Assembly: GCA_026710865.1 (NCBI GenBank)
Contig: JAPOQG010000204.1
Coordinates: 9,318 to 73,317 of the forward strand
Reading direction: 5' to 3'
DNA from: Acidimicrobiaceae bacterium
Lineage (GTDB): Bacteria > Actinomycetota > Acidimicrobiia > Acidimicrobiales > Aldehydirespiratoraceae
Length of the DNA: 64,000 nucleotides
Part shown: piece after piece, positions 4,601-63,278 of the stretch
Numbering within the stretch: the stretch's first letter is position 1
Layout: each line of letters begins with the position of its first letter
The notes under the pieces: model-generated
Database searches by the model: none
What the model was told of the DNA's origin: nothing
Seen by the model: the letters and a program-made list of their open reading frames with translations, nothing else
Made by a program: the position numbers and the translations under genes

Positions 4601-6012
4601 TCGAGGTGTCAGCGGGCAACCTGCCGGCCAGGGTCGGACCCGGAGAGCCCGCGGCCTGGCTGGTGGACGACCCCTCGCGTCAGCGCCAGTTCGTTGGCGG
4701 ATGGCATCCCGGCCAGGGCCACCTCGTGGTTGTGGGCGGCCCCGCATCGGGCACCTCCACCACTCTGGCCTCCGTGGCTCTCGACCTCTGCCGGAGCCGT
4801 GATCCCGACGACCTTCACATCTACGCGCTCGACTTGGACGCCGGGCTGCTCACCGCGCTCGAACGCCTCCCCCACGTGGGTGCGGTCATCGCTCCGACCG
4901 ACGGCGAGCGTCGGGCACGGCTGTTGCGATTGCTCGACGACGAGGTGACCGCCCGGCGGGCCGGAGGAGCCTCAGCCGCCATCGTGCTGCTGGTGGACGA
5001 CCTCGCCGGGCTGGCACGGGCCCATGATCCGGTGCGCGACCCCGAGCCCCATCAACGCTTCGCCCGCATCTGGAGCGACGGCGCCGCGGTGGGGGTCACC
5101 GTGGCGGTGAGCGTCGCCCGAGCCGCGGACCTCCCACCGGAACTGGCCGCGTCCGCGGGTGTGGTGCTGGTCCACGCGACCTCCGATGCCGGCGACGGGC
5201 TGCGCTTCGGCCTGCGCACCCCGACAGCGGGCCTTGCCGCGGGCCGGGCCGTCAGAGCCGGCGACGGCCTGGAGGTGCAGATCGCCCGACCCGTCGGCGG
5301 CGACTTCGCGTCGGCCGCAGCCGAGGTGGCCGCCAGTGCGGCGCCGGCGGAACGAGGACCGGCCCGGATCGGCTCGCTGCCTCCCAGGGTCTGTTTCGAG
5401 GACCTGCCCGGCAGCGCCCTCAGCGAGGACCGCCGCATCGACCTCCGCTTCGCCATGGGCGATCTGAGCCTGGCGCCGACCGGCTTCGCGCTGCACGACG
5501 GCGAGCACGCCCTGGTGATCGGTCCGCCCCGCACCGGGCGCACCTGCGCCCTGGCCGCCGTGGGCGCCGCGGCCCGCTGCGCCGGAGTCGAGGTGGTCGT
5601 CGTGGGTGACCGTCCCGGCGACCTGGCGCGGCTGCTGGGGGTGGAGCCGGTCCCGGTGGGCGAACTCGACACCCCCGATGGCCGCCGGCGGCTAATGCTC
5701 GTAGACGACGCCGATCGGGTCAGCGACCCCTCCGGGCTGCTGGCTCGCCTGGCTGCCGGCGGTGACGGCTCCTGCCATCTGGTGGTCTCGGCCACCGCCG
5801 AGCGTCTCCGCTCGTCCTACGGCCACTGGCTCAACGAGATGCGAACCTGCCGGACCGGGGTGCTGTTCAGGCCGGGACCCCTCGACGGCGACCTGCTCGG
5901 CGCGGCCCTGCCGGCACGGTTGGAGCCGCTGCCGGTGCCGGGTCGGGGACTGGTGGTGGCCGACGGCGCAGCCGCGGTCGCGCAGGTGGCGCTCGTGGGC
6001 GCGGCTGCGTAG
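1660..6012 (+). CDS. eccC: FtsK/SpoIIIE-family type VII secretion ATPase (EccC/EssC-like) with an N-terminal ubiquitin-like segment and an FHA domain
   Basis: 1450 aa. FHA signature WTIGRS..DVVLDD..VSRRH..GSHNGT at about 2152-2360. Two TM helices (LSWAGIALPVVAGLVLALVW / FMAVFAALGPLITIGTW). Three P-loop modules: GGTTGSGKSE at 3751-3780, then GGPASGTST and GPPRTGRT. Confidence 0.85.
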   Translation: MRIRHLCNGTEQTVEIDSRLEGYTVADLMAALGSRLDGPGDSSAGVRVDGCWHSAGTPLSAVPIWEGALLEIAPGSGQSPSQSPKQPAGPALGASSRGQVLAVAAEQQPAGPALGASSRGQVLAVAAEQQPVGSALGASSRGQVLAVTAGLRAGSRHRPPPIGTWTIGRSVSCDVVLDDPAVSRRHTRVSVERPGARPVVADLGSHNGTVVAGRAVTDPAPVPAGATVRLGATCLQWRTERDDAPAAVSAGLGAAAGRIPFNRPPRRRPPTSPATLRVPAEPPPRPEPEPLSWAGIALPVVAGLVLALVWNPFMAVFAALGPLITIGTWLERRRRSTRAHRRACEDTAARVKGFVAALPAEAAAERLRRLALVPDLAELVRRAETPSLRCWERRQRDPDAMRLGVGTADVPYSPPIEVDGDGGAAPQALEALEALEPLRDVPVAVSLAPGDVVGIVGPLPAARAVARSLVLQAAVLHGPADLAVAGLAPGGAREWSWLRWLPHTADAAGGGPGALAATEGSAMRAAAETAAAGCAQRILLAVIDGTEALTGRSAPGRTLLALRSTAGIIVTTDVCDLPSNCTTIVQVDHSAGGLRLVDPRSAAKLAPLVAWGVTIATATHAAARLARLDDPELGSHHANLPESVSLVDLMDGEPTPESVSQRWQATRGTADLRVPIGATAEGPLVLDLVVDGPHLLIGGTTGSGKSELLRSLVAGLALSADPDHLALVLIDYKGGAAFDRCAEMPHVAGMVTDLDDRLAERALVCLEAELRHREERLRAAGAEDLAAFRARSGPAAEPLPRLVVVVDEFATLAAELPDFLHSLVGIAQRGRSLGVHMVLATQRPAGVVTDDIRANTSCRIALRVTDRHDSNDVIDSPAAARIPRQRPGQALARLGPGELVAFQSALVTGTTPRGSGGLRVGAGGQAPGQDPSEFPGGSGSEPGGDPVERNDLDAVVDAVTVAHRRRGGRAPRPPWPKPLPLEVSAGNLPARVGPGEPAAWLVDDPSRQRQFVGGWHPGQGHLVVVGGPASGTSTTLASVALDLCRSRDPDDLHIYALDLDAGLLTALERLPHVGAVIAPTDGERRARLLRLLDDEVTARRAGGASAAIVLLVDDLAGLARAHDPVRDPEPHQRFARIWSDGAAVGVTVAVSVARAADLPPELAASAGVVLVHATSDAGDGLRFGLRTPTAGLAAGRAVRAGDGLEVQIARPVGGDFASAAAEVAASAAPAERGPARIGSLPPRVCFEDLPGSALSEDRRIDLRFAMGDLSLAPTGFALHDGEHALVIGPPRTGRTCALAAVGAAARCAGVEVVVVGDRPGDLARLLGVEPVPVGELDTPDGRRRLMLVDDADRVSDPSGLLARLAAGGDGSCHLVVSATAERLRSSYGHWLNEMRTCRTGVLFRPGPLDGDLLGAALPARLEPLPVPGRGLVVADGAAAVAQVALVGAAA
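1915..2112. repeat. 3 x 66-bp in-frame tandem repeat inside the eccC-like gene
   Basis: Units at 1915-1980, 1981-2046 and 2047-2112 encode QPAGPALGASSRGQVLAVAAEQ three times. The third unit is diverged. Confidence 0.95.
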
Positions 6013-19834: not shown

Positions 19835-21964
19835 GTGGATAGAACCGGATCCTTCCCGCGTCGCCAGGCCCGCACCCGGCGCTTCACGCTGGGCGAGCCC
19901 CGCGACATCCGGGTGTCCGACGACGGCTCCCGGGTGGCGTTCCTGCGCTCGTCGGGACCCGTCGACCCGGCCAACTCTCTGTGGGTGCTGGATGTGGCCG
20001 CCGGTTCGGAGCGCCTGGTGGCCGACCCCGGCCGGCTCACCGGCGACCACGGCGACCGGGATCTGCCGAAGGCCGAGCGGGCCCGCCGCGAGCGGGTGCG
20101 GGAGACCGGCTCCGGCATCGTGTCCTATGACGCCGACGCGGATCTGGGGACCGCGGTGTTCTCGCTGGGTGGGAGGCTGTGGCGGGCTGACCTGACCGGA
20201 GGCGACCGGCGGCCCGAGCCCCTCGCGTCCCGGCCTGGAGCGTTCGACCCGCGGCTCTCGCCCGGCGGCTCGCGGGTCGCCTACGTGGCCGGTCCGGTCC
20301 TGCGGGTGACCGGGGACGCCGCCGAAGACCGGGCCGTCGCCGAGGAGCCCGGCGAGACGGTGAGCTGGGGATCGGCCGAGTTCGTGGCCGCCGAGGAGAT
20401 GGGCCGCACGAGGGGCCACTGGTGGTCTCCCGACGGCCGGCGCCTGCTGGCGGCCCGGGTGGACACCGCCGGTGTGCCGCGCTGGTGGATCCCCGATCCG
20501 GCGTCGCCCGACGCCGAGCCGGTCGAGATGCGCTATCCGGCCGCCGGCGCGGCCAACGCCGAGGTGCGCTTGGCCGTTCTCGACGCCGGGGGCGACGACG
20601 GCGGCGCCGGGACCGGCCCGGTGGACGTGGCCTGGGACGAGGGCGGCTGGGAATACCTGGCCGGGGTGCGCTGGAGCGCCGACGGGCTGATCCTGACGGT
20701 CCAGACCCGGGATCAGCGCACGCTCGGCGTGTTGGAGGCCGACCCGGACACCGGGTCCTGCCGCCTCCTGCGCCGTGTCACCGACGACGCCTGGGTGGAA
20801 CTCGTTCCAGGCGTGCCGAGGCTGGTGGGATCCGGGCTCGTCACGGTCGAGGACCGGGGCAGCGCGCGCCGGCTGTGCGTGGACGGCGAGGCCCTCACGC
20901 CCGACGACATGCAGGTCCGGGCCGTTCACCATGCCGACGACGCAGGTGTCGTCGTCACCGCCTCAGCCGACCCGGCCGAGGTCCATGTCGCCCGGGTGGG
21001 CTGGGACGGCTCCGTTTCGTGGCTCACCGACGGCCCGGGCGTCAACGGGGCGGCTGCCGGTGGCGGCACGGTCGTGCTCGCCGGGCGGACGCTGGAGCAT
21101 GCAGGCCGCCGCTGCACGGTCGCGTCGCGACTGAGGCCCGGCCGGGACCACTGCATCGCTTCGTTCGCCGCGGATCCCGGCCTGGACCTGAACGTCGAGA
21201 TCGTCGAGCTTGGCGCCCGCAAGCTGGTGTCGGCCCTCGTGATGCCCTCGGCGGCGGCCTCCACCGGCGACGGGCCACTGCCGGTGCTGCTGGATCCCTA
21301 CGGCGGGCCCCACGCCCAGCGGGTGCAGCGGGCCGAGGCCCTGTTCCACACCTCGCAGTGGTTCGCCGACCAGGGATTCGCGGTGCTGGTGGTGGACGGC
21401 CGGGGCACGCCGGGCCGGGGCCCGGCCTTCGAGCGGGCCGTGCGGGGCGACCTGGCCGGCCTCGTCCTCGAGGACCAGATCGACGCCTTGAGGGCCGCGG
21501 CCGTCATCGAGCCGCGCCTGGACCTGTCGAGGGTGGCCATCCGGGGCTGGTCCTTCGGCGGCTACCTGGCCGCGCTCGGAGTCCTGCGACGGCCCGACGT
21601 CTTCTCAGCTGCTGTCGCGGGCGCGCCGGTCACCGACTGGCGGCTCTACGACACCCACTACACCGAGCGCTATCTCGGCCACCCCGCCGAGGAGCCGGCC
21701 AACTACGAGCGCACCGACCTGACCCCGCTCGCGCCCGGCCTGGAACGCCCCCTGATGCTCATCCACGGCCTGGCCGACGACAACGTGGTGGCGGCCCACA
21801 CCCTGCGGCTGTCGCGGGCTCTGACCGAGGCAGGACGGCCCCACACCGTGCTGCCTCTGTCGGGCGTAACCCACATGACCCCCCAGGAGGAGGTCGCCGA
21901 GAACCTGCTGATCATCCAGCTTCGCTTCCTGCAAGACGCCCTGCGAGTGCCCGCAAATGGGTGA
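19835..21964 (+). CDS. S9 family serine peptidase (dipeptidyl-peptidase IV-like)
   Basis: 709 aa. A DPP-IV-type beta-propeller N-terminus (WSPDGRRLL..) and a C-terminal hydrolase with nucleophile motif GWSFGGY and LIHGLADDNV. Confidence 0.85.
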   Translation: MDRTGSFPRRQARTRRFTLGEPRDIRVSDDGSRVAFLRSSGPVDPANSLWVLDVAAGSERLVADPGRLTGDHGDRDLPKAERARRERVRETGSGIVSYDADADLGTAVFSLGGRLWRADLTGGDRRPEPLASRPGAFDPRLSPGGSRVAYVAGPVLRVTGDAAEDRAVAEEPGETVSWGSAEFVAAEEMGRTRGHWWSPDGRRLLAARVDTAGVPRWWIPDPASPDAEPVEMRYPAAGAANAEVRLAVLDAGGDDGGAGTGPVDVAWDEGGWEYLAGVRWSADGLILTVQTRDQRTLGVLEADPDTGSCRLLRRVTDDAWVELVPGVPRLVGSGLVTVEDRGSARRLCVDGEALTPDDMQVRAVHHADDAGVVVTASADPAEVHVARVGWDGSVSWLTDGPGVNGAAAGGGTVVLAGRTLEHAGRRCTVASRLRPGRDHCIASFAADPGLDLNVEIVELGARKLVSALVMPSAAASTGDGPLPVLLDPYGGPHAQRVQRAEALFHTSQWFADQGFAVLVVDGRGTPGRGPAFERAVRGDLAGLVLEDQIDALRAAAVIEPRLDLSRVAIRGWSFGGYLAALGVLRRPDVFSAAVAGAPVTDWRLYDTHYTERYLGHPAEEPANYERTDLTPLAPGLERPLMLIHGLADDNVVAAHTLRLSRALTEAGRPHTVLPLSGVTHMTPQEEVAENLLIIQLRFLQDALRVPANG

Positions 21965-21991
21965 CGACCTGTCGCGTGGCAGCGGTGTCAC

Positions 21992-22086
21992 TCCCGCTCT
22001 TGTTCGCTTCGCTCACGGGCCGCTCGGGCCACGGCCTCGCTCCGTGTGTGCCGCGCCGTCCCGCCTATCCGCTCGGCCTCTGCGAG
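21992..22086 (+). repeat. interspersed intergenic repeat, copy a (medium-length form)
   Basis: Begins TCCCGCTCTTGTTCGCTTCGCTCACGGGCCGC and ends CCGCTCGGCCTCTGCGAG. It shares both ends with the copies at 34306, 39344 (inverted) and 61721. Confidence 0.85.
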
Positions 22087-22140
22087 TGCCAACATTGGCG
22101 CCTCGAGAGCAGCCGCCGCGAGACCGCGAGGGAGCAGCCG

Positions 22141-32590: not shown

Positions 32591-33468
32591 CGCGGCATCC
32601 AGCGGTCGCGCAGGGTCACCAGCACCGCCAGGGCCACCGCCATCAGCACCAGGCTGATGGCCACCGCCGCCTCCGGGTTGCGCTCCAGGGCCAGGTAGGT
32701 CTCCAGCGGAAGGGTGCGGGTGCGGCCCGGGAAGTTCCCGGCGAAGGTGAGCGTGGCCCCGAACTCTCCGAGGGCTCGCGCCCACGACAGCGCGGCGCCG
32801 GCCGCCAGCGCGGGACGGATCGTGGGCAGCACGACATGCACGACGGTGGCCCAGGGTCCGGCGCCCAGCGTTGCGGCCGCCTCGTCGAGGTCGTCGCCGG
32901 CCTGGCGCAGGGCGGCCTCGACCGTCACGACGAAGAAGGGCAGGGCCACGAACGCGGCCGCAACCACGGCTCCGGCGGTGGTGAATGGGAGGCTGACGCC
33001 GAACCAGGTGTCGAGCCACTGGCCGACCAGGCCCCGCCGACCCAGCGCGAACAGCAGGGCGGTGCCGGCCACCACCGGCGGCAGCACCATGGGCAGCATC
33101 ACCACCGCTCGCGCCACCCGGGGGGACCGCAATCGGCGCCGGGCCAACACGAACGCCAGGGGAAGGCCCAACACGACACACGCCGCAGTGGCCGCCACGC
33201 TCACCACCAGCGACAACCGCAGCGCCTCCAGCACCTCGGACTCGCCCAGCAGCGTCGGCAGCGACGACCACGGCGTCCGCTGCAACAGCCCGACGATGGG
33301 CAGCGCCAAGAGGCCGAGGGCCACGAAACCCACGACGGTCAGCGCGGCGGGCAACTGGCTGGCGGACCGTGCCGGACCGGGCTCAGCGGCGTCGTCGGGC
33401 GGACTCGCGGCCGTCAGCGCCTGGATGTGCCGTGGACGTTGTCGTTGTCTCATGCTGGTACCGGCCAT
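32587..33468 (-). CDS. modB: molybdate ABC transporter permease
   Basis: 293 aa and polytopic, with an EAA-type loop (..LDEAAATLGAGPW..). Sits between modA and modC. The exact start is uncertain. Confidence 0.85.
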   Translation of the reverse strand: MAGTSMRQRQRPRHIQALTAASPPDDAAEPGPARSASQLPAALTVVGFVALGLLALPIVGLLQRTPWSSLPTLLGESEVLEALRLSLVVSVAATAACVVLGLPLAFVLARRRLRSPRVARAVVMLPMVLPPVVAGTALLFALGRRGLVGQWLDTWFGVSLPFTTAGAVVAAAFVALPFFVVTVEAALRQAGDDLDEAAATLGAGPWATVVHVVLPTIRPALAAGAALSWARALGEFGATLTFAGNFPGRTRTLPLETYLALERNPEAAVAISLVLMAVALAVLVTLRDRWMPR

Positions 33469-34259
33469 ACGGGCCGGCGGTCCGAGCCCAGGAAGCCGTA
33501 TGCATAGAGGGCCTTGGCGCCGACGCTGCCGAGCACCGTGAAGTCCTCGATCACCGCCTGTATGTGCGGCGGGGGTTCTGCCGACACCGACGCTATGTAG
33601 TAGCCGTTGACGTGGTCGCTCAACTCCGGGGCGTCGACGGTGGCGAGTCCCGCCATCCTCGCGTCGGTTGCGTACACAAGTCCGGCATCCAGCTCACCCA
33701 GCGACAGCTTGGTTGCCAGGGCGCGCACGTTGAGCTCCAGCGTGTCCGCGGAGGGCGCGATTCCCGCTTCGTCGAGCGCTTGGCGGGCCAGTGTCCCGCA
33801 CGGGACCTCTGCTGCGCACAGGCCGGTCAGGAGGTCTCCGCGGCCCAGGTCGGCCAGCCCGGTGACCCCGCCCGGATTGCCGGCAGGAGTTGCCAGCACG
33901 AGCACGTTGACCGCGATCAGCACCGGCTCTCCATGCACCGACCCTTCGGAAACGGCCTGCTCCATGGTGGCCGAATTGGCGGTGATCAGAACGTCGGCGC
34001 CGGCGCCGGCGGCGAGCTGGGCCACCAGCGTTGAGCTCCCCGCGATCACGGGGGTCACGCTGTCACGGCCCTCGAACACGGTCTCGATCACGTCAGTAAG
34101 CGACGAGGCGGCCATCACCACCACATCCCGGCCGGCACCATCGTCCGCGGTGTCGCCGCATCCCGACACGAGCATCGCCACCGCGGCCGACACGACCGCT
34201 GCCGCCCTCAGTCCGGTCGGCCCCCGGTGGCACCTTCCGGTGACGCTGACGGCCGTCAT
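33450..34259 (-). CDS. modA: molybdate ABC transporter substrate-binding lipoprotein
   Basis: ATG at 34259. Lipobox LVSGCGD, then VVVMAASSLTDV..E.VF is ModA-like. The ORF part upstream of 34259 merely reads through the intergenic repeat. Confidence 0.85.
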   Translation of the reverse strand: MTAVSVTGRCHRGPTGLRAAAVVSAAVAMLVSGCGDTADDGAGRDVVVMAASSLTDVIETVFEGRDSVTPVIAGSSTLVAQLAAGAGADVLITANSATMEQAVSEGSVHGEPVLIAVNVLVLATPAGNPGGVTGLADLGRGDLLTGLCAAEVPCGTLARQALDEAGIAPSADTLELNVRALATKLSLGELDAGLVYATDARMAGLATVDAPELSDHVNGYYIASVSAEPPPHIQAVIEDFTVLGSVGAKALYAYGFLGSDRRPVWPVPA

Positions 34260-34305
34260 AGGGACCGAATCTACCCAAGTCGTGATGCGGCGCTGCTTCC
34301 GTGTC

Positions 34306-34423
34306 TCCCGCTCTTGTTCGCTGCGCTCGCGGACCGCCCAAACCAAGGCAACACAGCCCACGGCATGGCTCGTTGGCTCCCAGATTCTAGGGAATCGTGC
34401 TCCATCCGCCCGGCCTCTAGGGT
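34306..34423 (+). repeat. interspersed intergenic repeat, copy b (long form)
   Basis: TCCCGCTCTTGTTCGCTGCGCTCGCGGACCGCCCAAACCAAGGCAACACAGCCCACGGC....CCCGGCCTCTAGGGTG. The first ~60 nt are nearly identical to copy d. Confidence 0.85.
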
Positions 34424-35539
34424 GTGGCGATGCTCGCACTAGCTCAAACATCGGCCAGTACAGGACTCGCGGACGCCTGCGGTCAGACGAACCGCGGCTT
34501 CGTCTGCGAGAGGGTCTTCGACTGGACCGGAAACGCCGGCTTGGCCACCGCGGCCGACTGGCTGCTCGACCGTCCCATCCGCATCGCGCTGGTCCTGGTG
34601 GCGGCCTGGATCGTCACCCGCATCGTCAAGCGGGCCATCTCGCGGTTCACCACGCGCATCGCTGCCGCACCGAGCAGCTCGCGGTTGCAGAAGCTGCGAG
34701 AGAAGGGTCCGGTGCGCGCGCTCTCCGATGAGGTCGAACGCTCCCGGTCCGAGTCCCGGGCCGAGACCCTCGGCAGCGTGCTGCGCAGCGTGGCGGTCGC
34801 TCTCATCTGGACGTTCGCGGCACTGATCGTGTTGGGCGAGATCGGCGTGAACCTCGGGCCGCTGATCGCCGGGGCCGGCATCGGCGGCATCGCACTGGGC
34901 TTCGGCTCCCAGGCGATAGTGAAGGACTTCCTGTCGGGCCTGTTCATGCTGATCGAGGACCACTACGGCGTCGGCGACTACGTCGACCTGGGCTACGCCT
35001 CGGGCACGGTCGAGGAGATGTCGCTGCGTTCCACCACGATCCGGGACATCAGGGGCACGGTGTGGCACGTCCCCAACGGCGAGATCTCACGGGTCGGGAA
35101 CTACTCGCAGCTGTGGTCGAAGGCGCTGGTCGACATCGAGGTGGCCTACGGCACCGACGCCCGCCTCGCGATGGGCATCATGCAACAGGTGGCCAACGAC
35201 CTCTGGAACGACCCGGAGTGGGGCGGCGACGAGCTCTCGGAGGCGCCGACGGTGTTCGGCATACAGAGCCTGGGCGCGTCGGGCGTCGGCCTCCGGCTGG
35301 CGGTGAAGACCGAGCCGTCGATGCAGTGGGCGGTGGAGCGGGAGATCCGGCTGCGCATCAAAGAAGCCTTCGACGCGGCCGGCATCGAGATCCCGTTCCC
35401 GCAGCAGACCACCTGGCTCCGCGACGACAGCGGATTCTCCGCCACCACGCTCTCAGAAGCCGAGCAGGACGCCTTCCGGGCGCTCTACGAGGAGCAGCAC
35501 GGCCCGAAGCCCGAGGACGACTTCTCCGAGGAGCGCTAG
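34424..35539 (+). CDS. mechanosensitive ion channel (MscS family) protein
   Basis: 371 aa with an N-terminal TM region and the conserved core GIALGFGSQAIVKDFLSGLFMLIEDHYGVGDYV..G.VEE..LR.T..R...G....VPNG. The start may be the ATG at 34430. Confidence 0.85.
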   Translation: MAMLALAQTSASTGLADACGQTNRGFVCERVFDWTGNAGLATAADWLLDRPIRIALVLVAAWIVTRIVKRAISRFTTRIAAAPSSSRLQKLREKGPVRALSDEVERSRSESRAETLGSVLRSVAVALIWTFAALIVLGEIGVNLGPLIAGAGIGGIALGFGSQAIVKDFLSGLFMLIEDHYGVGDYVDLGYASGTVEEMSLRSTTIRDIRGTVWHVPNGEISRVGNYSQLWSKALVDIEVAYGTDARLAMGIMQQVANDLWNDPEWGGDELSEAPTVFGIQSLGASGVGLRLAVKTEPSMQWAVEREIRLRIKEAFDAAGIEIPFPQQTTWLRDDSGFSATTLSEAEQDAFRALYEEQHGPKPEDDFSEER

Positions 35540-35601
35540 GAGGCCGAGGCCAGCGGTCGGGTCATTCTGCGTGCATTGGCGGGTCGCGCTCCGGGCTCCT
35601 C

Positions 35602-38149: not shown

Positions 38150-39340
38150 ATGACAACCAAATCCAAGAGGCCCAAGTGGCTGCTGCTCGTCTCGTTGCTC
38201 GCGGTGTTCGCGGTCCTTGGGGCCGCGTGCGGCGACGATGACGACGACGCCGCGCCGACCACCACCGCCGCGCCCGCGACCACGGCCGCGCCGACCACCA
38301 CCGCCGCGCCTACGACAGTCGCGCCGGAACCGGCCCCCGAACCGCCCAGGACCCAGGGACCGGGCGGCGAGGAGGCGGTGCCGTCCAGCGAGATCACCCT
38401 GAGCAGCGAGGAGATCGGCGAGGTCCAGGCAGGGGGCTACACCGCCGCGCTGCTGTGGCACACCTCGGGAGCGTTCACCGACGCGGTGAGCCAGGGCGCC
38501 CGGGACGCCTTCGCAGAGCTCGGGATCGAGGTCGTCGCCGAGACCAACGCCAACTTCGACGCGGCTCAGCAGGCCAACGACGTGGAGACGGTCATGGCGC
38601 AGAGCCCGGACATCATCATCAGCCTGGCCATCGGCCCCGACGCCGGCGCTGAGGCGTTCCGGCCCGCCGTCGACGCGGGCGTGCAACTCGTGTTCCTGTC
38701 GAACGTGCCCCAGGGCTACGTCCACGGCCAGGACTATGTGGGCATCGTCACCGACGACCTCGCGGCCATGGGTATCACCGCCGCGGACCTGCTCGCAGAT
38801 GCGCTCGGAGGCGAGGGAGAAGTGGGCTACATCTTCCACGACGCCGCCTACTACGTGACCAACCAGCGCGACCAGGCCTTCAAGGCATGGATCGAGATCA
38901 ACTACCCCGGCATCGAGATCGTCGCCGAGCAGGGCCTCGCCGACCCGGCCGCCGCGGAGGAGATCGCCTCGGCGATGCTGACCCGCAATCCCGGTCTCGA
39001 CGGCATCTACGCCCCGTGGTCGGCGGGCCCCGCCGACGGCGTGCTGGCCGCGCTGCGAGCCGCCGGAGCCTCCGACGTGGCCCTGGTGACCATGGACCTC
39101 GACACCAACGTGTCGCTCGACCTCGTGGAGGGCGGCAACGTCGTGGGAATAGCCGCCGACGAGGCCTACAACCTCGGTCGCACCATGGCCGTCGAGGGCG
39201 CCTACGGGCTGCTCGGCAAGCCTGCTCCGGCCTTCGCGGTGGTGCCGGCCATCGGCGTGACCGCTGACAACATCGTCGAGGGCTACCGCCAGTCGCTGGT
39301 CGCGGATCCGCCTCAGGAGGTCCTCGACGCCCTCGGCTGA
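38150..39340 (+). CDS. sugar-type ABC transporter substrate-binding lipoprotein (periplasmic binding protein type I)
   Basis: ATG at 38150 with RBS AAGGGAGGGG. Signal peptide plus lipobox LGAACGDDDD, then a Thr/Ala/Pro-rich linker and an RbsB-like body. Confidence 0.85.
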   Translation: MTTKSKRPKWLLLVSLLAVFAVLGAACGDDDDDAAPTTTAAPATTAAPTTTAAPTTVAPEPAPEPPRTQGPGGEEAVPSSEITLSSEEIGEVQAGGYTAALLWHTSGAFTDAVSQGARDAFAELGIEVVAETNANFDAAQQANDVETVMAQSPDIIISLAIGPDAGAEAFRPAVDAGVQLVFLSNVPQGYVHGQDYVGIVTDDLAAMGITAADLLADALGGEGEVGYIFHDAAYYVTNQRDQAFKAWIEINYPGIEIVAEQGLADPAAAEEIASAMLTRNPGLDGIYAPWSAGPADGVLAALRAAGASDVALVTMDLDTNVSLDLVEGGNVVGIAADEAYNLGRTMAVEGAYGLLGKPAPAFAVVPAIGVTADNIVEGYRQSLVADPPQEVLDALG

Positions 39341-39343
39341 GCC

Positions 39344-39384
39344 AGAGGCCGAGCGGCCAGTGAGCGCAGCGAACAAGAGCGGGA
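39344..39384 (-). repeat. interspersed intergenic repeat, copy c (41-bp mini form, inverted orientation)
   Basis: The reverse complement reads TCCCGCTCTTGTTCGCTGCGCTCACTGGCCGCTCGGCCTCT. This is the left end joined directly to the right end of the long form. Confidence 0.85.
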
Positions 39385-39411
39385 AACAGAGGCAGACTTG
39401 CCCCCCAGGCT

Positions 39412-61577: not shown

Positions 61578-61720
61578 CGGCGACCGGGGCTCCTCCTTCC
61601 CTGCGACTCACCCCTGGAGGGGCCCTTACAGGGCTCGGCGGCCCGGTCTGGAGGGGACTGGGCCGCCGAGCCATGCCCGCGCCCGGGCGGCCTGGAGGCT
61701 GGTCTCGGAGGCGTTGACAT

Positions 61721-61837
61721 TCCCGCTCTTGTCAGCTGCGCTCACGGGCCGCCCAAACCAGGCGACACTGCCCACGGCCTCGCTCGGCGACTGGCGAGTC
61801 TTCAGACCATGTGCCGCCTACTCGCTCGGCCTCTAGG
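61721..61837 (+). repeat. interspersed intergenic repeat, copy d (long form)
   Basis: TCCCGCTCTTGTCAGCTGCGCTCACGGGCCGCCCAAACCAGGCGACACTGCCCACGGCCTCGCTC....CTCGCTCGGCCTCTAGG. The last bases supply the TAG stop (61833-61835, minus strand) of the adjacent gene. Confidence 0.85.
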
Positions 61838-63278
61838 CGAATCCGAACAGGGGCGGGAAGGCGACCACCACCACGGCGGCCCACACCGCGTAGACGGGTG
61901 CGTAGGCCGTCTGCCAGCGCTCCAGTGACGCGATGGGTCGACGGCCCCGAGCGAACCCGAGGTAGAGCCACGCCGACACGGACAGGTTGGCGAGCAGGAC
62001 CACGTTCTCGCCGAGGGCGGCGACGCGGTTGGGGGTGAGGCCGAGGTCCGACACCCGGCTCGCCACGGCTGCGAGCATCACTGCGTCCGCGACCAGGGCG
62101 CTTACGACCAGCACGAGCTGCAGCAGGTCGAACGGGCCGTAGGGCTGGCGGGGGTCGCGGGCCGATATGGCGTAGAGCAGCAGGCCGAGGACCAGCGCGA
62201 GCACCAGGTCGAAGACGATGAGGATGTCCCGGTCGAAGTCGATGCCTCGCCTCGTCCACACCATGGCCCCCAGCAACGCCACCAGCATCGCGGCGAACAG
62301 CGGCGTGAACAGCCGTGTGAGCACCGGCGCCATGTTCTCGATGACGCTCTGCTTGGCCTCGACCAGCCACGAGGCCACCACCACCGCGCCGAGGGCGCCG
62401 CAGGCCAGCACCCACGACGAGACGAATTCGCCGGCGTCGATGCCTATGGCCGAGAAGGCCACCTGCGTCAAGGAGGCCAGAACCCCGCCCCCGAGCGCGA
62501 TCAGCACGTAGTAGACGAACCACTCGCCGCTGAAGCGCACGTAGTCCATGCGCCGGCGGCTCGACCGCCAGTCGCCTCCGGCGTAGGCCACGCCGACCAG
62601 CAGCCACAGGGCGATCGGCAGGTGCAGCACGGCCAGCACCTCGGTGTCGGAGCCGTCCTCGAACGGGTAGACGTTGACGACGACCGCGGCCGCGATGAAG
62701 GGGGCTGCCAGCAGACGGAGGGCCCGGGCCGCGGGCAGGCCGCGCCTCCACACGAAGTAGCCGGCCAGCGGCACCAGCGCGAACAGGCTGAGGTTGCGGG
62801 CGTAGAACTCGCCGTCGTCGACGAGGCTCGCGCCGAATATCTCGGGGACCTTGACCGCGGCCGCCGCCAAGCACGCGAACCCGATCATCACCAGGAAGCC
62901 GTGGGTGGCGGGCTCGGCTGCAGGCTCCGGTGCGAGCCGCTTCCAGAGCCGTTCGGAGTGCTCCTGGGCGAACTCGCTCGACAGGTCGTCGACGCTGCCC
63001 ATCCGCTTGACCGCGATGAGGAAGGCCTCGTCGGGTGCCAGGCCCGCCTCGCCCAGGTCGGCGATCCGGTCTCGCAGATGTCCCTCGAGCTCGTCCAAGT
63101 CGGTGGCGTCGACGGCGGGCTGCTGCTCCAGGCGGGCTCGCCACCGAGCGATCAGGGCCTCAAGCTCGGGCGCCTCGTGGTTGGGGGCTTCAAGCTCGGG
63201 GGTCTCGCGGTCGAGCGCCTCGTGCTCGGGGGTCTCGTGCTCGGGGGTCTTGCGCTCGCCCGGCCCGGCGGTAGTCAC
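61833..63278 (-). CDS. polytopic membrane protein (DUF4153-like) with a PadR-associated N-terminal cytoplasmic domain
   Basis: GTG at 63278, 5 nt after the PadR stop. The N-terminus has TPEHE/APELE repeats, then ..LDELEGHLRD......GL..DEAFLIA.KR.G (a permease-prefix-type helix), then about 10 TM helices. Confidence 0.7.
   Translation of the reverse strand: MTTAGPGERKTPEHETPEHEALDRETPELEAPNHEAPELEALIARWRARLEQQPAVDATDLDELEGHLRDRIADLGEAGLAPDEAFLIAVKRMGSVDDLSSEFAQEHSERLWKRLAPEPAAEPATHGFLVMIGFACLAAAAVKVPEIFGASLVDDGEFYARNLSLFALVPLAGYFVWRRGLPAARALRLLAAPFIAAAVVVNVYPFEDGSDTEVLAVLHLPIALWLLVGVAYAGGDWRSSRRRMDYVRFSGEWFVYYVLIALGGGVLASLTQVAFSAIGIDAGEFVSSWVLACGALGAVVVASWLVEAKQSVIENMAPVLTRLFTPLFAAMLVALLGAMVWTRRGIDFDRDILIVFDLVLALVLGLLLYAISARDPRQPYGPFDLLQLVLVVSALVADAVMLAAVASRVSDLGLTPNRVAALGENVVLLANLSVSAWLYLGFARGRRPIASLERWQTAYAPVYAVWAAVVVVAFPPLFGFA

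Follow-up and report, generated by a model that had tools for sequence, protein, structure and literature searches.

A miniature non-coding transposon family with TNA target duplications at gene ends of sponge-associated Acidimicrobiales

The Correia elements (NEMIS) of Neisseria are miniature inverted-repeat elements (MITEs) of approximately 100-150 bp with inverted ends and a short, TA-containing target duplication. Their copies number in the hundreds and lie at the ends of genes as well as inside operons; they include internal deletion variants and can alter the expression and the ends of neighbouring genes. The maize transposon PIF and its derivative mPIF prefer the target CWCTTAGWG, which has the same CTC-TNA-GAG shape as the insertion site reported below. 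Among insertion sequences, members of the IS5 family that belong to the IS1031 group favour 5'-TNA-3' as their target, and the direct repeats that they generate are exclusively 3 bp long (PMC12016507). Canonical Harbinger elements also produce 3-bp duplications and cluster with IS5 (PMC12730594). Here, we analysed a stretch of 64,000 nucleotides from an Acidimicrobiaceae bacterium, referred to as the window, in which a sequence-only reading had pointed out four related repeats (copies a to d). These repeats are copies of a previously undescribed miniature non-coding transposon family with a length of approximately 50-170 bases. In the literature on the host genera and on MITEs in sponge Acidimicrobiia, we found no description of the repeat.

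The window has a G+C content of 70.5%, and a scan of it for tRNA and tmRNA genes detected none. The degenerate 23-mer TCCCGCTCTTGTYMGCTKCGCTC matched at four positions of the window (21992+, 34306+, 39384-, 61721+) compared to 0.00 matches expected from dinucleotide shuffles, and an nhmmer profile of the 49-nt core returned exactly the same four sites. All four repeats were present as they had been described, each with the right end CCGCTCGGCCTCT at 0-1 mismatch, and the extra block common to copies b and d, CCAAACCA(A)GGC(G/A)ACAC(T/A)GCC, was confirmed. Further copies were found in the genomes and their relatives, with 336 core matches to the nhmmer profile in approximately 1.8 Mb of sponge-symbiont Acidimicrobiia genome and metagenome DNA. 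When the 23-mer was run against a species-representative genome collection, at least 117 stretches were recovered. The hosts were Candidatus Aldehydirespirator, Candidatus Poriferisodalis and bins assigned to Acidimicrobiaceae or Acidimicrobiia, and among the matches listed all were metagenome-assembled Acidimicrobiia with one chance exception. This exception, a Nitrospirae metagenome-assembled genome (L043), matches the 23-mer only and was rejected as a member of the family. As an ascertainment control, metagenome contigs were scanned with the other half of the core, CACGGGCCGCTCGGGCCACGGCCTCGC, which yielded at least 120 stretches; the core half that had not been used for selection showed at most one mismatch in 88 of 120 copies among the matches listed. 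The carriers span at least two families of Acidimicrobiales, and nothing similar was present in the plasmid, phage and viral-contig collections that were searched. As far as the searched collections reach, the MITE family is restricted to sponge-associated Acidimicrobiales.

An alignment of approximately 100 copies revealed that the full element measures approximately 125-170 nt and consists of four parts. The left arm of 45-65 nt (GAG(C/G)..GCGCGGATAGGTGAG...GTGTCAT; in the fuller consensus with the target, T-N-A followed by GAG(C/G)..GCGCGGATAGGTGAGAGCC.GTCGCG.CGCAGCGG.GTCAT) is followed by the 49-nt core (TCCCGCTCTTGTTCGCTGCGCTCACGGGCCGCTCGGGCCACGGCCTCGC), a variable stretch of 15-50 nt that defines the subtypes, and the right end (...CGCCTATCCGCTCGGCCTC adjoining T-N-R), with GAGGCCGAGCGGATAGG as the element end sequence. 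Counted from the start of the core to the right end, the subtypes are 86-89, 95-101, 65 and 57-61 nt long. What had been taken for the left terminus of the repeat is the start of this internal core, and copies a, b and d have a left arm of 45-65 nt upstream of it. The left arm imperfectly matches the right end when the latter is reverse-complemented (AGAGGCCGAGCGGATAGG..., AGAGGCCGAGCGGATAGGCGAG), and the two arms show 74% complementarity over approximately 30-45 nt. The element therefore has terminal inverted repeats. The sequence-only reading had seen neither terminal inverted repeats nor a target duplication; both are present once the left arm is included.

Position-specific information showed that conservation begins with C-T-N-A-G-A-G on the left and ends with C-T-C-T-N-R-G on the right. 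The element termini are GAG...CTC, with a 3-bp TNA duplication within a C-TNA-G target, and the target is uninformative outside C-TNA-G. The two variable bases, N in the left T-N-A and N in the right T-N-R, agreed in 26 of 46 copies, which was reached in 0 of 10,000 shuffles (p < 1e-4), and the same held for 22 of 48 copies in an independent metagenome set (p = 4.5e-4). In an in-register comparison of the junctions of 94 copies, excess identity was observed at N only (48 matches versus 23 expected), and the full three bases of TNA were identical in just 17 of these copies. Copy a is an exception with an 11-bp repeat that has TGC instead of TNA, and approximately eight other copies have in-register flanking repeats of 8-16 bp. 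Across loci, the right end typically adjoins a stop codon, and the left arm carries stop codons approximately 48 nt upstream of the core.

Copy a is a full-length element on the plus strand (approximately 21942-22083) comprising a TGC repeat, the left arm (21945-21991), the 49-nt core (21992-22040), a variable middle, the right end ...CCGCTCGGCCTC (to 22080) and a second TGC repeat, all in plus orientation. It is surrounded by an 11-bp direct repeat on the same strand, CTGCGAGTGCC (left 21941-21951, right 22080-22090), which is single at empty orthologous sites. The neighbouring genes encode an S9 peptidase and a DUF1214 protein. The left arm supplies the TGA stop (21962-21964, plus strand) of the prolyl-oligopeptidase gene (19835-21964); the earlier description of the sites as intergenic does not strictly apply to this copy. 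Copy b (approximately 34261-34417, plus strand; flanks ATA and TAG) has a variant core with a 15-nt insertion (34306-34369) and is located between a minus-strand solute-binding-protein gene (probable start CAT, 34257-34259) and an MscS-type channel gene (ATG at 34430). Copy c, a short form on the minus strand (39341-39388), consists of TGTT, core positions 1-27 and the right end. It directly follows the TGA stop (39338-39340) of an ABC-transporter periplasmic binding-protein gene, upstream of the gene for its permease. Copy d lies on the plus strand at approximately 61668-61833, where the left boundary is approximate, between genes for a vWA protein and an unassigned protein; its left arm is degenerate, its core is the variant (61721-61783), and the last base of its right end overlaps the stop codon (61833-61835) of a convergent minus-strand gene. 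Furthermore, a minus-strand remnant resembling the right end, GAGGCCGAGGCC (35540-35551), follows the TAG stop (35537-35539) of the MscS gene, and a full element is found at this position in the related locus L033. The genes beside the four copies are ordinary. As had been noted, the family gives rise to a spurious peptide: RERSEQERE is the translated reverse strand of the core, and in copy b it is in frame and artificially extends the open reading frame 33450..34451(-).

Comparison with related genomes revealed filled and empty orthologous sites. The empty site of copy a is exact in L238 and L239 (GACGCC-CTGCGAGTGCC-AACATT), and in the window, L240 and L241 the element lies between two CTGCGAGTGCC repeats. 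Most orthologs of the upstream peptidase end with ...ALG/RxPxLAP.EQ.PR..EGAAGE/D*, and the window peptidase and four close relatives end with ...VPANG*. The insertion of copy a swapped the ancestral tail ...VPTLAPREQPPRD.EGAAGE* for ...VPANG*, truncating the protein. The C-terminal forms seen in the orthologs P0001-P0120 were PPLAPxEQQPRRDEGAAGD, VPANG, MPAGE/MPPRE/MPARE and LQSSTTGG..., of which VPANG alone was traced to the element; the short MPAGE tail looks like an in-frame deletion. The two flanking repeats of copy a change together, with CTGC.. in both repeats of the window and CTGG.. in both repeats of L240, which suggests conversion or an excision that was followed by re-insertion.

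Copy c represents a 50-nt insertion relative to the empty ortholog site in L033, GGCTGAGGCAGAC. A clean TGA/TGA duplication was detected when L108:4651 was compared to L098, where the target is the stop codon of a metK-like gene ending with ...KSALGL*, and L021 versus L098 is a second clean pair of a filled and an empty site. Several of the 'empty' sites retain a right-end-like remnant. Together with the inverted ends and the TNA duplication, these pairs bear out the earlier suggestion of a MITE-like interspersed family. Copy b is filled in all three syntenic genomes. Its variant core with the 15-nt insertion also occurs in copy d, L003 and L117, whereas the orthologs of copy b in L033 and L085 are filled with a standard core, which makes conversion or replacement between copies a real candidate. 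At the stop codon of the gene next to copy d, L025 (positions 1-300, orthologous to window positions 61840-62500) contains two tandem elements in the orientation opposite to that of copy d; this stop codon must therefore have been hit more than once, independently. The orthologs of window positions approximately 23400 and 34300 are approximately 2.9 kb apart in L085 and approximately 11 kb apart in the window. Thus, the minus-strand gene block at approximately 24.5-33.7 kb is an insertion or a rearrangement relative to L085. Copies or remnants of the element are located near both borders of this block (L085:3661 and copy b).

The size series had been ascribed to internal deletions, and the short forms fit this explanation. 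CCGCTCGG occurs both in the core (positions 29-36) and in the right end. In copy c, the first 27 nt of the core directly abut the right end, as the earlier reading had it, and the junction reads ...GCGCTCAC-TGG-CCGCTCGG-CCTCT. This is the product expected from a deletion between the CCGCTCGG direct repeats, and the forms of 57-61 nt ('T4') are similar. The first part of the core was also found in tandem arrays of up to four units with periods of 27, 42, 45 and 48 nt, all of which are multiples of three (L027, L083:1592-1726, L108:395-487 and 4651-4699, L088, L066, L092:518-599 and L240/L241). No sign of translation was seen in these arrays. At two loci (L030:4314-4400 and L092:417-500), the core is interrupted by a small common sequence, ...AAATCTGTAGAGAAACCCGTCACAGAGAGGCAAGATCCAACAGATTT..., with inverted ends of its own (AAATCTGT/ACAGATTT), which may be a second small mobile element that targets the first. 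Two inverted elements around approximately 400 nt were observed in L205:1669-2382 and L237:8021-8734. Their outward ends match at 18 of 20 positions, and the arrangement looks like a composite transposon made of two MITEs.

From the observed repeat family with its target consensus, insertion polymorphism and deletion derivatives, we infer the identity of the mobilising enzyme. The inverted ends, the GAG termini and the TNA duplication suggest that the family is non-autonomous and is probably moved in trans by a DDE transposase of the IS5 family (IS1031/IS427 group, PIF/Harbinger-like). Such a transposase would bind the inverted ends and insert the element at C-TNA-G, duplicating TNA. In a genome with 70% G+C, TNA triplets would mostly be stop codons, and copies would therefore accumulate exactly at gene ends, where the TNA duplication or the arm would preserve or supply a stop codon. 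After insertion, the left arm would decay, deletions between the CCGCTCGG direct repeats would lead to the short forms, and slippage would lead to tandem cores.

No gene for a transposase flanked by ends like those of the element was detected, either in the window or across the approximately 1.8 Mb of loci. Candidate parents, defined as inverted end-like 17-mers at a distance of 400-3000 nt, were rejected, as they turned out to be ordinary genes between separate copies. A generic search for GAG...CTC inverted repeats spaced 700-1800 nt apart revealed chance pairs and the L205/L237 composite only, and when the window and the genome-scan loci were compared all against all by megablast, synteny alone emerged, with no repeated segment of the size of an insertion sequence. 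Further observations do not sit well with mobilisation by an IS5-type enzyme. These include the small number of copies with a full TNA match (17 of 94) and the right-end-like remnants at several 'empty' sites. The repeats of 8-16 bp at some copies and the 11-bp TGC repeat at copy a speak against a 3-bp staggered cut, and copy c and L116 were apparently inserted without a left arm, beside a GCCTC-like sequence. In addition, a selfish MITE is predicted to have its ends best conserved; here, the core and the right end are conserved and the left arm is not, which counts against the model.

This pattern of conservation is pronounced. Within the commonest subtype, mean pairwise identity was 48% in the left arm, 98.7% in the unselected half of the core, 71% in the middle and 86% in the right end, while random flanks showed 28% in the same comparison. 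Overall, identities ranged from 97-99% in the core and 82-86% in the right end to 41-48% in the left arm. In four orthologous filled pairs, the core was 97.4% identical, compared to 82.4% for both the left arm and the adjacent flank (Fisher p ~1e-7 for the core versus either the left arm or the flank). The contrast between core and arm indicates that the core is either constrained or homogenised. Within the core, the terminal motif CCGCTCGG(G)CC recurs in direct orientation, and our best guess, which builds on these internal copies, is that the core is a putative array of extra transposase-binding sites and that its homogeneity may be kept by conversion between copies and/or selection at the level of the host.

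The orientation of the element is biased as well. Between co-directional genes, it was antisense to transcription in 60 cases versus 27, and an independent set gave 29 versus 11 (combined p = 7e-6, a ratio of approximately 70:30). Symmetric DDE insertion should be neutral with regard to orientation; hence, the bias suggests selection after insertion. In 178 of 295 cases considered over all loci, the plus strand of the element was the one that is locally richer in C (p = 5e-4). This skew may be a restatement of the gene-orientation bias, or it may relate to the direction of replication. It may be speculated, though with considerable doubt, that the core and the right end constitute a domesticated module under purifying selection at hundreds of gene ends in at least two families of Acidimicrobiales. 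The domesticated core would then be a putative sequence-specific site for a protein, either from the host or derived from a transposase, or it would act in RNA as a strand-specific signal, for instance as a C-rich site for Rho loading. If this were true, the MITE would be the vehicle that wires a genome-wide regulatory or chromosome-organising signal.

A further step in this direction would be to regard the conserved part, i.e. the core and the right end, as primarily functional for the host, spread by transposition and kept by purifying selection, with its effect on the flanking genes as its main role. We consider this unlikely. Binding of a protein is a possible role of a core with this degree of conservation, and the other options would be an element at mRNA ends or a signal for termination or for the loading of Rho. 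The identity of the core in the orthologous filled pairs compared to arm and flank argues for such a function, as do its near invariance across two bacterial families, the reproducible orientation bias between co-directional genes and the fact that copies are found inside operons as well as at the stop codons and starts of genes. Copy c, for instance, lies between a binding-protein and a permease gene, comparable to the REP sequences that lie in malE-malF. However, both orientations and all gene contexts occur, and the variant core of copy b suggests conversion, which could explain the homogeneity without any function. Scans of copies a and b for sigma-70-like promoters and intrinsic terminators detected nothing, and in Rfam 15 there was no match at the gathering score in the whole window, with copy a giving noise only at E-values of up to 10. 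Copy a folded no better than its shuffles on both strands (z = +0.67 and +0.61), RNAalifold predicted short local stems only for each subtype and no arm-to-arm helix, and the mutual information within the core showed no covariation. Arms were not more complementary to the arm of their own copy than to arms of other copies. Among the arm mismatches, G-U pairs numbered 131 on one strand versus 112 on the other, with 476 other mismatches, and there was neither a strand preference nor compensatory change. The structured small RNA that had been offered as an alternative thus finds no support in the fold energies (z of approximately +0.6), in the pattern of change between the arms or in the Rfam search. 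A coding function of the core was rejected based on its codon composition and the variety of its contexts; the third-position G+C content of the one open frame of the element is far below the approximately 90% of the genome, and no context of a protein family was detected. An integron attC site was dropped on sequence alone, since GTTRRRY/RYYYAAC core sites are missing, the copies point in both directions and their neighbours are ordinary genes.

Other modes of transfer would explain some of the junctions differently. Site-specific or homology-guided recombination by a tyrosine or serine recombinase or an IS110-type enzyme would integrate the element via a sequence common to its joined ends (...GGCCTC-TNA-GAG...) and a look-alike target, and the apparent duplication would be the crossover core. 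The 11-bp identical repeat at copy a would fit, as would the 11 bp (CGGCCTCTGAG) that L108:4651 and its empty site have in common, the frequent resemblance of targets and 'empty' sites to the right end, the many head-to-tail arrays and the joint difference of the two copy a repeats between lineages. The empty loci L238 and L239 have the derived R allele of the filled window, which suggests a precise excision. Nevertheless, we regard recombination as quite unlikely: the in-register excess among the 94 copies is found at the N of TNA only and does not extend over 7-11 nt, the element ends in inverted repeats like DDE elements do, the target beyond C-TNA-G is uninformative and no recombinase gene was seen beside any copy. 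Much the same material could be read as a REP/BIME-like or IS200/IS605-derived palindrome that is moved as single-stranded DNA by a hairpin-recognising RAYT/HUH Y1 transposase. The element is extragenic, located at gene ends and in arrays, and palindromic overall; the right-part stem of a short subtype changes from GGCC...GGCC to GGCT...AGCC, and some insertions are located 3' of a GCCTC motif that resembles the right end of the element itself. Yet HUH elements would not be expected to leave a TNA duplication, decay of the arms is not offset by compensation, and arms pair no better with their own partner than with mixed arms. Furthermore, folding is not unusually stable, no RAYT gene was noticed and, with approximately 150 nt, the element is several times as long as a REP. 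This origin hence appears very improbable. Chance similarity or a duplicated gene fragment, the latter of which the earlier reading had listed among the refuting outcomes, has a practically negligible probability. Apart from the reading of the reverse strand as the peptide RERSEQERE, nothing speaks for it: zero matches were expected, hundreds of copies lie beside unrelated genes in many genomes, and the presence/absence polymorphism at orthologous sites has already refuted it.

A MITE family mobilised by an IS5-type transposase would be a clean example of how a T-N-A target makes the stop codons of a high-G+C genome landing pads. The family explains spurious extensions of open reading frames and variable protein C-termini in these metagenome-assembled genomes, and the peptidase tail occurs in at least three forms. 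The element is likely to break short-read assemblies, and annotators of sponge-symbiont genomes should therefore mask the family. That nearly unchanged elements occur in different families from the same hosts suggests either that mobile DNA is exchanged among members of the sponge microbiome or that the element has a function. An invariant core next to decayed ends, together with the orientation bias, is unlike a purely selfish MITE and makes the element a concrete candidate for exaptation.

Several known repeat families resemble the element in part. Rickettsia RPEs and mycobacterial MIRUs likewise overlap coding ends and supply or replace stop codons and tails, as copy a does for the peptidase. 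RPEs, however, insert in frame inside genes and are translated, whereas the element is found at stop codons and only truncates tails, and MIRUs are tandem minisatellites, unlike the element. The extragenic placement at 3' ends and within operons, the clustering and the palindromic character are similar to REP/BIME sequences with RAYT. The element differs in its much greater length, in its TNA duplication and in lacking the 5' GTAG-type tetranucleotide and the tight hairpin; REPs are palindromes of 20-40 nt that are kept as a hairpin, whereas the arms of the element are not kept as a stem. Correia elements are unrelated to it in sequence and belong to a different phylum. Their ends are well conserved and form RNA hairpins that are cleaved by RNase III, in contrast to the element, which shows no stable fold or compensatory change. 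IS5-derived MITEs (IS1031/IS427) and the Tourist MITEs of PIF/Harbinger differ from the element in that its core is far better conserved than its left inverted repeat and that a minority of its copies have flanking repeats of 7-16 bp. They are like the element in being small and non-coding with terminal inverted repeats, and they are alike in the 3-bp T-N-A duplication, the GAG...CTC termini and the short palindromic C-TNA-G target.
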